DNA of 64,000 nt from a phage. A program made the position numbers and the translations under genes. Below, piece after piece: positions 24,921 to 25,987 of this stretch (position 1 is the first letter of the stretch; every line of letters begins with the position of its first letter). Under the pieces are notes generated by a model. It was not told where the DNA came from. It made no database searches and saw only the letters and a list, made by a program, of their open reading frames with translations. The stretch lies in assembly GCA_012178725.1 (NCBI GenBank), contig GCA_012178725.1_3030.1; one strand, 5' to 3'.

Positions 24921-25781
24921 TTACACCGCCATCTTTCCTTTAATTGGCGGGTGAGATACATAGTCGTTAAGAACAAAATTATGCGGCTTTGCGAATTGAC
25001 TCAACCAAAATACCTGTGATTCTGTGTCCCATTCATCAAATTCATCTGGGAATTTTAATTGTAATTCGCATAAATCCATAGGTTCACGACGCAAAATTTC
25101 TTTACATTGTTCTACGTGATTCATATAGATATGAGTATTACCGCCAGAAAATATCAAATCTCCCGGAATAAGATTACATATCTTAGCTACAATATGAACT
25201 AACGCAGCATATGATGCAATATTAAATGGAAGACCGAGGAAAACATCTACTGATCGTTGATACCACTGAAGGTCAAGGTATCCATTACGAACATTAAATT
25301 GATAGAACATATGACAAGGTGGTAATGCCATCTGCTTGAGTTCAGTTGGATTCCATGCTGAAATAATTTGACGCCTATCATTTGGCAGTTTTTTAATACG
25401 ATCAATAACTTCTATAATTTGGTCTACACCACCAAAATCACGCCACTGTTTTCCATAAATTGGACCAAGTTCACCGCTATGGTATCCTAAATCTTTTGCT
25501 TGATTTTCGTAATTTTCATCCCAGACTGTTTTGCCTTGAATTAATGAATCATGTTGAATTAATCGCAAATCATTGACATTTGTGCTTCCTGATAAAAACC
25601 ATATTAGCTCAGCAATGCATGCATTCCAGGCGAGCTTTTTAGTTGTTACTGCAGGAAAACCTTTGGTTAAATCCCAACGCAATTTAGTACCGAACAAAGC
25701 AATTGTTCCTGTGCCCGTTCGGTCATCGGTTTCATAGCCATTTTCAAAAATGTCTTTAATTAAATCTTGGTATTGTTTCAT
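24921..25781 (-). CDS. td: thymidylate synthase, uninterrupted
   Basis: 286 aa from [11 protein letters not shown]; conserved ThyA core (PPCH motif); no intron. Confidence 0.95.
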   Translation of the reverse strand: MKQYQDLIKDIFENGYETDDRTGTGTIALFGTKLRWDLTKGFPAVTTKKLAWNACIAELIWFLSGSTNVNDLRLIQHDSLIQGKTVWDENYENQAKDLGYHSGELGPIYGKQWRDFGGVDQIIEVIDRIKKLPNDRRQIISAWNPTELKQMALPPCHMFYQFNVRNGYLDLQWYQRSVDVFLGLPFNIASYAALVHIVAKICNLIPGDLIFSGGNTHIYMNHVEQCKEILRREPMDLCELQLKFPDEFDEWDTESQVFWLSQFAKPHNFVLNDYVSHPPIKGKMAV

Positions 25782-25987
25782 TAGTTCATCCAAGAATATG
25801 TAGAAGGATATTTGGCAAAGTTAGGCTTATATCCTAATTTAACCATTTGTTTTGCTTTGCGAGTAAATCCTAAAGAACGCTCACCTTTAAGATATTGTTT
25901 TGGTGTCATAGGCCCTTGATGCATCTGCCGACAAATAAAAAGGGCCATAGCATTAGGAACATCCTTAACTTTTAATTTATTGCTCAT
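25781..25987 (-). CDS. hypothetical small protein at the frd-td junction
   Basis: 68 aa ORF; start overlaps frd stop and stop overlaps td start. Confidence 0.4.

Follow-up and report, generated by a model that had tools for sequence, protein, structure and literature searches.

A 68-Codon Reading Frame Between frd and td of a T4-like Phage: Probably an Accessory Gene at a Polymorphic Junction

Introduction

The dihydrofolate reductase gene frd and the thymidylate synthase gene td of phage T4 meet in an ATGA stop-start overlap that was reportedly described by Purohit and Mathews in 1984. In the T4-like phage DNA considered here, a small open reading frame (ORF) of 68 codons occupies exactly this meeting point, which raises the question of what such a frame is: a gene in its own right, a moron, the debris of a mobile element, or a stretch of RNA that serves the expression of td. 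An initial annotation, made from the letters of the DNA and a list of its ORFs, had proposed that the frame preserves translational coupling between its neighbors and that it may be either a lineage-specific insertion of the moron type or a leftover of a mobile element. We address these possibilities through the layout of the locus, the conservation of the ORF product, the arrangements of the junction in other phages, and the pattern of divergence across it.

Layout of the frd-td Junction

The window (the whole 64,000-nucleotide stretch of phage DNA analyzed, contig GCA_012178725.1_3030.1) carries frd, the ORF, and td on its minus strand, a point on which the initial annotation was silent. The frd gene (25984..26568) encodes a dihydrofolate reductase of 194 aa with 86% amino acid identity to T4 Frd and is named frd in homologous records. 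The ORF (25781..25987) consists, according to the ORF list and the sequence, of 68 codons that begin with ATG and end with TAA. The td gene (24921..25781) is intron-less and encodes a thymidylate synthase of 286 aa. Between frd and the ORF the overlap reads ATGA, with the ATG of the ORF (25987-25985) lying over the TGA of frd (25986-25984); between the ORF and td it reads TAATG, with one A common to the TAA of the ORF (25783-25781) and the ATG of td (25781-25779). Coordinates and translation thus agree with the original placement of a 68-aa ORF between frd and td whose start and stop overlap both neighbors. With regard to the translational coupling that was proposed along with it, each of the two boundaries has a stop-start overlap that would permit it.

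Comparison with the T4 reference (NC_000866) shows the same flanking genes and the same ATGA overlap at the frd stop. There, frd occupies 145109..145690 and td ends at 145112, so that the two overlap directly by 4 nt with no intervening gene; the direct overlap in T4 that the initial annotation cited is correct, and the ORF, whose annotation at this position of the T4 reference would have refuted that account, is absent from T4. The difference is that the ATG overlapping frd belongs to td in T4 and to the 68-aa gene in the window, where the start of td lies 206 nt further on. Alignment of the 301-nt T4 span with the corresponding 507-nt span of the window revealed exactly 206 extra bases with the direct repeat AATGA at both ends, and the sequence 5′ of the first ATG is identical in the two phages. 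On the minus strand, the left copy of the repeat (25984..25988) holds the TGA of frd and the ATG of the ORF, and the right copy (25778..25782) holds the ATG of td and part of the TAA of the ORF, as placed by the sequence and the T4 alignment. Removing the 206 nt between the repeats yields the exact T4 junction. The window and T4 therefore differ by presence or absence of a segment exactly at the frd-td junction, as had been suspected.

Coding Status and Family of the ORF

Base composition alone gives a probability of about 0.005 for 68 open codons. Decisive over this value is that the protein is conserved across several phage genera with a dN/dS of 0.08-0.19, which marks the ORF as more than a chance frame. 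The product matches the PHROG 9550 HMM over its entire length (E 1.3e-45, 154.5 bits, residues 1-68 on profile positions 1-68 of 68), and its homologues occur in phages only and conserve both length and motifs. A tblastn search retrieved 238 phage records that contain the ORF. From a search of 1.84 billion cluster representatives, just six clusters (at 50% identity) were returned, so the family of PHROG 9550 is small and restricted to phages. In an alignment of 20 members, reaching down to 41% identity, lengths range from 68 to 76 aa, with one member of 92 aa, and eight positions are invariant (K4, K6, P11, K34, G40, M48, G52, and Y53).

Selection on the protein is evident in pairwise comparisons, the dN/dS being 0.155 for Klebsiella phage Marfa, 0.187 for Enterobacter phage CIP9, and 0.081 for Serratia phage 4S. 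The protein is 62-69% identical to its counterparts in CIP9 and 4S, and across the comparisons with Marfa, CIP9, and 4S its conservation roughly equals that of thymidylate synthase and exceeds that of dihydrofolate reductase. Between the Tequatrovirus and Dhakavirus copies, 9 of the 15 variable sites are third positions. Judged by this conservation, the ORF is a genuine protein-coding and conserved phage gene of PHROG 9550, and it is very probably a real, translated, and polymorphic accessory gene.

The gene is also a known one: an already annotated, ordinary small accessory gene of T4-like phages. Most carriers annotate it, and more than 100 GenBank records do so under the label "hypothetical protein". 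Examples of the same gene include XLL18565.1 (EPIMRB01), YP_009850431.1 (Marfa gp177), YP_009855949.1 (CIP9 gp059), and QIN96014.1 (Dhakavirus MN04). Entries of this kind share the position directly upstream of td, and 89 records encode an identical or nearly identical protein (at least 99% identity); they differ in their flanking alleles only, and none carries an assigned function. Homology searching with the 68-aa product, as suggested at the outset, thus placed it in PHROG 9550 among phage homologues and provided no functional domain. Specifically, the window protein matched no Pfam family at E ≤ 10, the 20 members had only scattered chance matches to Pfam at E ≤ 1, and searches of NCBIfam and PADLOC and a profile search of the PDB gave no relevant match.

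A small ORF with no recognizable domain might still be a chance open frame or the decaying remnant of a larger gene, for instance a fragment of a homing endonuclease, that yields no functional product. The records themselves lend this idea some color, as the ORF is unannotated in those of JS98 and SH7, only 42 aa of it are annotated in ACG-C40 and IME339, and the sb4 copy contains an in-frame TAG at codon 54. The sb4 stop codon is probably a sequencing error, however, because td is also split in that assembly, and like the indel in SH7 it probably reflects an assembly or sequencing error rather than a real pseudogene. A remnant would also be expected to show neither a dN/dS well under 1 nor a length of 68-76 aa (once 92 aa) and invariant residues kept over six 50%-identity clusters, nor a start and stop precisely set against both neighbors in five genera. 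A frame without a functional product is scarcely credible on this evidence and appears effectively refuted by the selection analysis. Nor is the ORF a visible remnant of a mobile element: Pfam, NCBIfam, PADLOC, and the PDB revealed neither a nuclease domain nor any other, and the family is full length everywhere.

Two RefSeq entries can be specified. In JS98 (NC_010105), the PHROG 9550 gene was left unannotated at 144213-144419, and in SH7 (NC_054942), the copy at 140071-140272 has a 1-nt indel.

Distribution and Alternative Arrangements of the Junction

The ORF is found directly upstream of td in five groups, namely Tequatrovirus (many records), Dhakavirus (JS98, MN04, KIT01, and CLB_P2), Marfavirus, Kanagawavirus (CIP9), and Serratia phage 4S. 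In T4-like carriers, it always lies immediately 5′ of td, and its stop codon either overlaps the start of td or directly adjoins it. More distant homologues, at 41-48% identity, are encoded by Phapecoctavirus (phAPEC8 gp235) and by metagenomic phage contigs, where they sit among small or replication genes away from td; a scan of IMG/VR added only 8 further loci. With carriers in five groups and homologues elsewhere, the gene is not lineage-specific, contrary to the first proposal.

To survey the junction, a 301-nt probe across the T4 junction was used, which matched 515 records. In most of these, including RB3, RB10, T2, RB18, AR1, and AndreasVesalius (bas42_0068), the two halves of the probe are 416 bp apart and the gap contains a 115-aa gene of PHROG 1928; the count of records with this insert is 363. 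About a quarter (about 137 records) have the 206-bp insert with the PHROG 9550 gene, a figure consistent with a query of window positions 25600-26200, for which 136 of 564 matching records cover at least 80%. The empty junction is limited to roughly 30-45 of the 515 records (roughly 6-9%), about half of them T4 itself; beyond T4 isolates, it occurs in RB55, RB59, vB_EcoM_112, G2133, FL12, FL18, HY03, SG1, and JEP6. The gene-free junction of T4 is thus an unusual, minority arrangement. Most Tequatroviruses have one of the two genes at the junction, PHROG 1928 or PHROG 9550. In Marfa, CIP9, and 4S, the gene order is frd - PHROG_1928 (one or two copies) - PHROG_9550 - td.

The PHROG 1928 gene is an alternative small gene of unassigned function at the same junction. 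Besides adjoining the PHROG 9550 gene in Marfa, CIP9, and 4S, it resembles the latter in being less diverged than its own flanks and in being bracketed by repeats of junction sequence; its 416-nt insert is flanked by direct repeats of the junction sequence, TAAATGAA. The differences are that its 115-aa product is an unrelated protein, that short spacers, not overlaps, lie between it and both frd and td, and that it is both commoner (363 versus about 137 records) and more diverse (mostly 95-99% versus at least 99% identity). The Tequatrovirus 1928 allele has spacers on both sides and does not derive from a tandem ancestor by simple deletion. ORF-carrying genomes showed no PHROG 1928 copy upstream of frd; the genes at that position belong to PHROGs 3566, 3183, 8592, and 4308. 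The label "putative homing endonuclease" that the PHROG 1928 gene bears in MZ501050 was rejected, there being no Pfam domain at E ≤ 1. The RefSeq record of T2 (NC_054931) leaves the PHROG 1928 junction gene at 138714-139115 unannotated. A full-text literature search brought up no account of any gene located between frd and td.

Comparison of the junction across T-even phages, which had been suggested as a check, therefore bears out that the ORF is polymorphic. The word "inserted", on the other hand, probably has the direction wrong, with the two genes in tandem in distant genera and the empty T4 junction rare. Because distant genera carry both genes in tandem and because both inserts are bracketed by repeats whose recombination generates the T4 sequence, the T4 frd/td overlap, judged from the distribution and the repeats, is more likely a derived loss through recombination of the AATGA repeats than an ancestral condition.

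Divergence Across the Junction

From 14 ORF carriers (seven Tequatrovirus, six Dhakavirus-type, and sb4), the ORF was aligned together with 400 nt of frd on one side and 500 nt of td on the other. Over all 14 genomes, mean pairwise divergence is 17.7% at the 3′ end of frd, 2.5% in the ORF, and 15.4% at the 5′ end of td. The corresponding values are 12.2%, 0.9%, and 8.5% within Tequatrovirus, 13.2%, 1.6%, and 8.4% within Dhakavirus, and 22.5%, 2.6%, and 21.8% between the two genera. The DNA of the ORF is hence about ten times less diverged than its flanks, both within each genus and between them, and the drop in divergence starts within a few bases of the ORF ends. Synonymous divergence between the window and JS98 follows suit, with a dS of 0.53 in frd, 0.05 in the ORF, and 2.5 in td. 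As a control, the window was compared with 50 kb of Dhakavirus JS98 in 1013 sliding 200-nt windows, whose mean identity is 74%; the ORF scored best at 98.5%. The only other 200-nt stretches to reach 95% identity to JS98 are at 21176-21375 and 40751-40950 of the window.

Such uniformity could mean that the main function lies at the nucleotide level, in a leader, an RNA structure, or a cis element for td expression, with the reading frame incidental or secondary. Synonymous divergence far below that of the flanks, within and between Tequatrovirus and Dhakavirus, is what this would produce, and the comparison with Marfa, in which dS is 0.9 in the ORF and >3 in frd, points the same way. Shuffled sequences, however, have predicted RNA folding energies just as good (z = -0.40), and Rfam yielded no credible match, only a spurious sub-threshold one to tmRNA. 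Relative to CIP9 and 4S, the synonymous sites of the ORF are about as saturated as those of its neighbors, and yet the protein has kept the identity and the low dN/dS described above. Moreover, about three quarters of Tequatroviruses express td without the ORF sequence, and the homologues in Phapecoctavirus and metagenomic contigs are not beside td. We regard a primarily nucleotide-level function as very unlikely. As the synonymous sites match their neighbors in saturation against CIP9 and 4S and the RNA is not predicted to be unusually structured, recent common ancestry would explain the uniformity of the ORF better than nucleotide-level constraint.

Recombination at the Cassette Ends

The divergence pattern is taken to indicate recent lateral spread of the ORF by recombination between Tequatrovirus and Dhakavirus. 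A given flank haplotype can be found with more than one junction allele. For instance, fPS-2, which has this ORF, is 98.7% identical in frd and 95.2% identical in td to AndreasVesalius, which has the 1928 allele, and ACG-C40, also with this ORF, is 96.8% identical in frd and 94.8% identical in td to T4 with its empty junction. The window provides a further case. The first ~44 nt at the 5′ end of its td (25735-25781) are identical to the T4/RB10 allele (QDLIKDIF), unlike the other ORF carriers examined, which possess the td allele QFLIKDIL. The combination of this ORF with a T4/RB10-type td 5′ end therefore places an exchange within about 15 nt of the ORF stop.

The 1928 cassette displays the same pattern in milder form, with 97.6% identity between two phages whose flanks match at 85-91%, so cassette shuffling belongs to the locus as such rather than to the ORF alone. 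Nor is the valley of diversity unique to the ORF, as most of nrdA.1 is identical among three phages. Past its first ~100 nt, this gene (24355..24680, minus strand) is the same in the window, T4, and EPIMRB01 save for a 1-nt deletion in the window at about 24523-24526 (TTTT to TTT) relative to T4 and EPIMRB01. The deletion splits the 108-aa gene into ORFs of 61 and 36 aa; either nrdA.1 is a pseudogene here or the homopolymer was misread in sequencing.

A more far-reaching version of lateral spread is that the 206-bp cassette has been under recent strong positive selection or drive and that a single allele swept Tequatrovirus and Dhakavirus by end-precise recombination. We consider this unlikely. 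If it were true, the sweep might owe to a basic product that counters a widespread enterobacterial defence or modulates thymidylate/dNTP supply, or alternatively to mobilization in trans by homing-endonuclease breaks, and the cassette would represent a minimal, nuclease-free one that uses stop-start overlap motifs (ATGA) as portable junctions.

Morons, Mobile Elements, and the td Intron

According to the definition attributed to Hendrix and colleagues, the morons of lambdoid phages are said to be extra genes of this general kind. The ORF shares with them its presence in some genomes and absence from close relatives, precisely between two conserved genes, as in the window and T4. Unlike them, it has neither a promoter or terminator of its own nor a compositional difference, and it is embedded in an operon through overlapping codons. 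Its GC content is 34.8%, compared with 35.7% for the window, 38.3% for frd, and 36.2% for td. Consensus scans for sigma-70-like promoters and for terminators returned none of the former within 25781-25987 or adjoining it and none of the latter across 24300-27500; for T4 middle and late promoters, inspection by eye showed no MotA box or late-promoter motif within the ORF. The moron-type label accordingly does not fit. A profile search of the six-frame translation returned the ORF alone, with no paralogue in the window.

T4-type phages reportedly also contain PeSL mobile regulatory cassettes, with early-promoter-plus-stem-loop repeat boundaries (Arbiol, Comeau, and Krisch, 2010). The ends of the ORF cassette showed neither promoter-like sites nor terminator-like stem-loops. 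Its ends differ from those of PeSL cassettes in being 5-nt AATGA repeats that arise from the stop-start overlaps, and the RNA folds no better than shuffles.

The td gene draws attention to another class of element. The td group I intron with I-TevI and the free-standing homing endonuclease cassettes (PMC2988022) resemble the ORF in their patchy presence and in having near-identical DNA within diverged flanks, and the ORF is within reach of exon I co-conversion driven by I-TevI. The differences are that the ORF has no endonuclease domain (none of the HNH, GIY-YIG, or LAGLIDADG type), no intron features, no adjacent endonuclease gene, and no correlation with the td intron. Four of the eight Tequatrovirus-type carriers examined (sutha, fPS-2, ACG-C40, and EC121) contain the intron and I-TevI together with the ORF; the window, EPIMRB01, IME537, sb4, and the Dhakavirus genomes with annotation have the ORF without the intron. 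Linkage of the ORF to the td intron and I-TevI was rejected on this basis.

These likenesses leave room for a selfish or hitch-hiking cassette, spread between co-infecting T-even phages by break-initiated gene conversion, whose uniformity would stem from drive and not from any benefit to the phage. Breaks could come from I-TevI cutting an intron-less td ~0.55 kb away or from some other endonuclease that cuts the empty junction. Sharp-edged, near-identical DNA in diverged flanks is reminiscent of T-even mobile introns, and the pairing of one flank haplotype with different junction alleles would follow as well. I-TevI, which half of the Tequatrovirus-type carriers examined possess, stays bound on the exon II side, which biases co-conversion into exon I (reviewed in PMC2988022), the side that faces the junction. 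Simple hitch-hiking nevertheless fails to explain the pattern, because td exon I, which lies between intron and ORF, stays 5-15% diverged among intron-bearing ORF carriers. Further points against it are the lack of a nuclease in or adjoining the ORF, the carriers without the intron, and the strong purifying selection in distant genera, which shows a function for the phage. Spread by drive alone strikes us as improbable; a contribution of exon I co-conversion by I-TevI to the frequent exchange of alleles at the junction is plausible.

Properties and Possible Role of the Product

The ORF encodes a very basic protein of 7.9 kDa with a pI of 10.3 and a net charge of about +10.6. AlphaFold2 predicts, at low to moderate confidence, a helical protein with three short helices (residues 13-24, 29-38, and 43-50; pLDDT 60, and 71 with a deeper alignment). 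With this model of moderate pLDDT as the query, Foldseek matched only homeodomains in the PDB, none of them significantly, and a search of BFVD returned the protein's own family alone.

The product is presumably neither an enzyme nor a nuclease. Our tentative guess is a small modulator that binds nucleic acids or proteins, perhaps made early alongside the nucleotide-metabolism enzymes and acting early in infection. Its task might be host takeover or anti-defence, or it might assist the enzymes of dNTP synthesis as an accessory. A conditionally useful accessory function fits the data, because the gene is dispensable in three quarters of Tequatroviruses and under strong purifying selection where present.

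Interpretation and Outlook

Taken together, the ORF is quite likely a genuine accessory gene within the early nucleotide-metabolism operon and one of three interchangeable alleles of the frd-td junction. It is presumably transcribed together with frd and td, because it lacks a promoter and a terminator, and ribosomes may be able to pass from frd to the ORF to td via the ATGA and TAATG overlaps. The start of the ORF takes the exact position and upstream context of the T4 td start, and the last codons of the ORF would serve as the new initiation region of td. Homologous recombination close beside the ends of the cassettes brings the junction alleles into new combinations with the frd and td alleles around them. 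In Tequatrovirus and Dhakavirus, the ORF allele goes back to a single recent origin and has crossed between both genera, and the T4 overlap most likely arose by loss, through deletion between short direct repeats of junction sequence.

Nothing here overturns current understanding. For annotation, the finding means that certain RefSeq records, those of JS98 and SH7, lack the gene and that others, those of ACG-C40 and IME339, give it in truncated form. The extreme uniformity of its DNA makes it a reasonable candidate when small T-even proteins are screened for a role in anti-defence or host takeover. The textbook frd/td overlap of T4 is not representative of T-even phages, and the frd-td junction offers a tidy natural example of small-gene cassettes that swap between diverged enzyme alleles, and even between genera.
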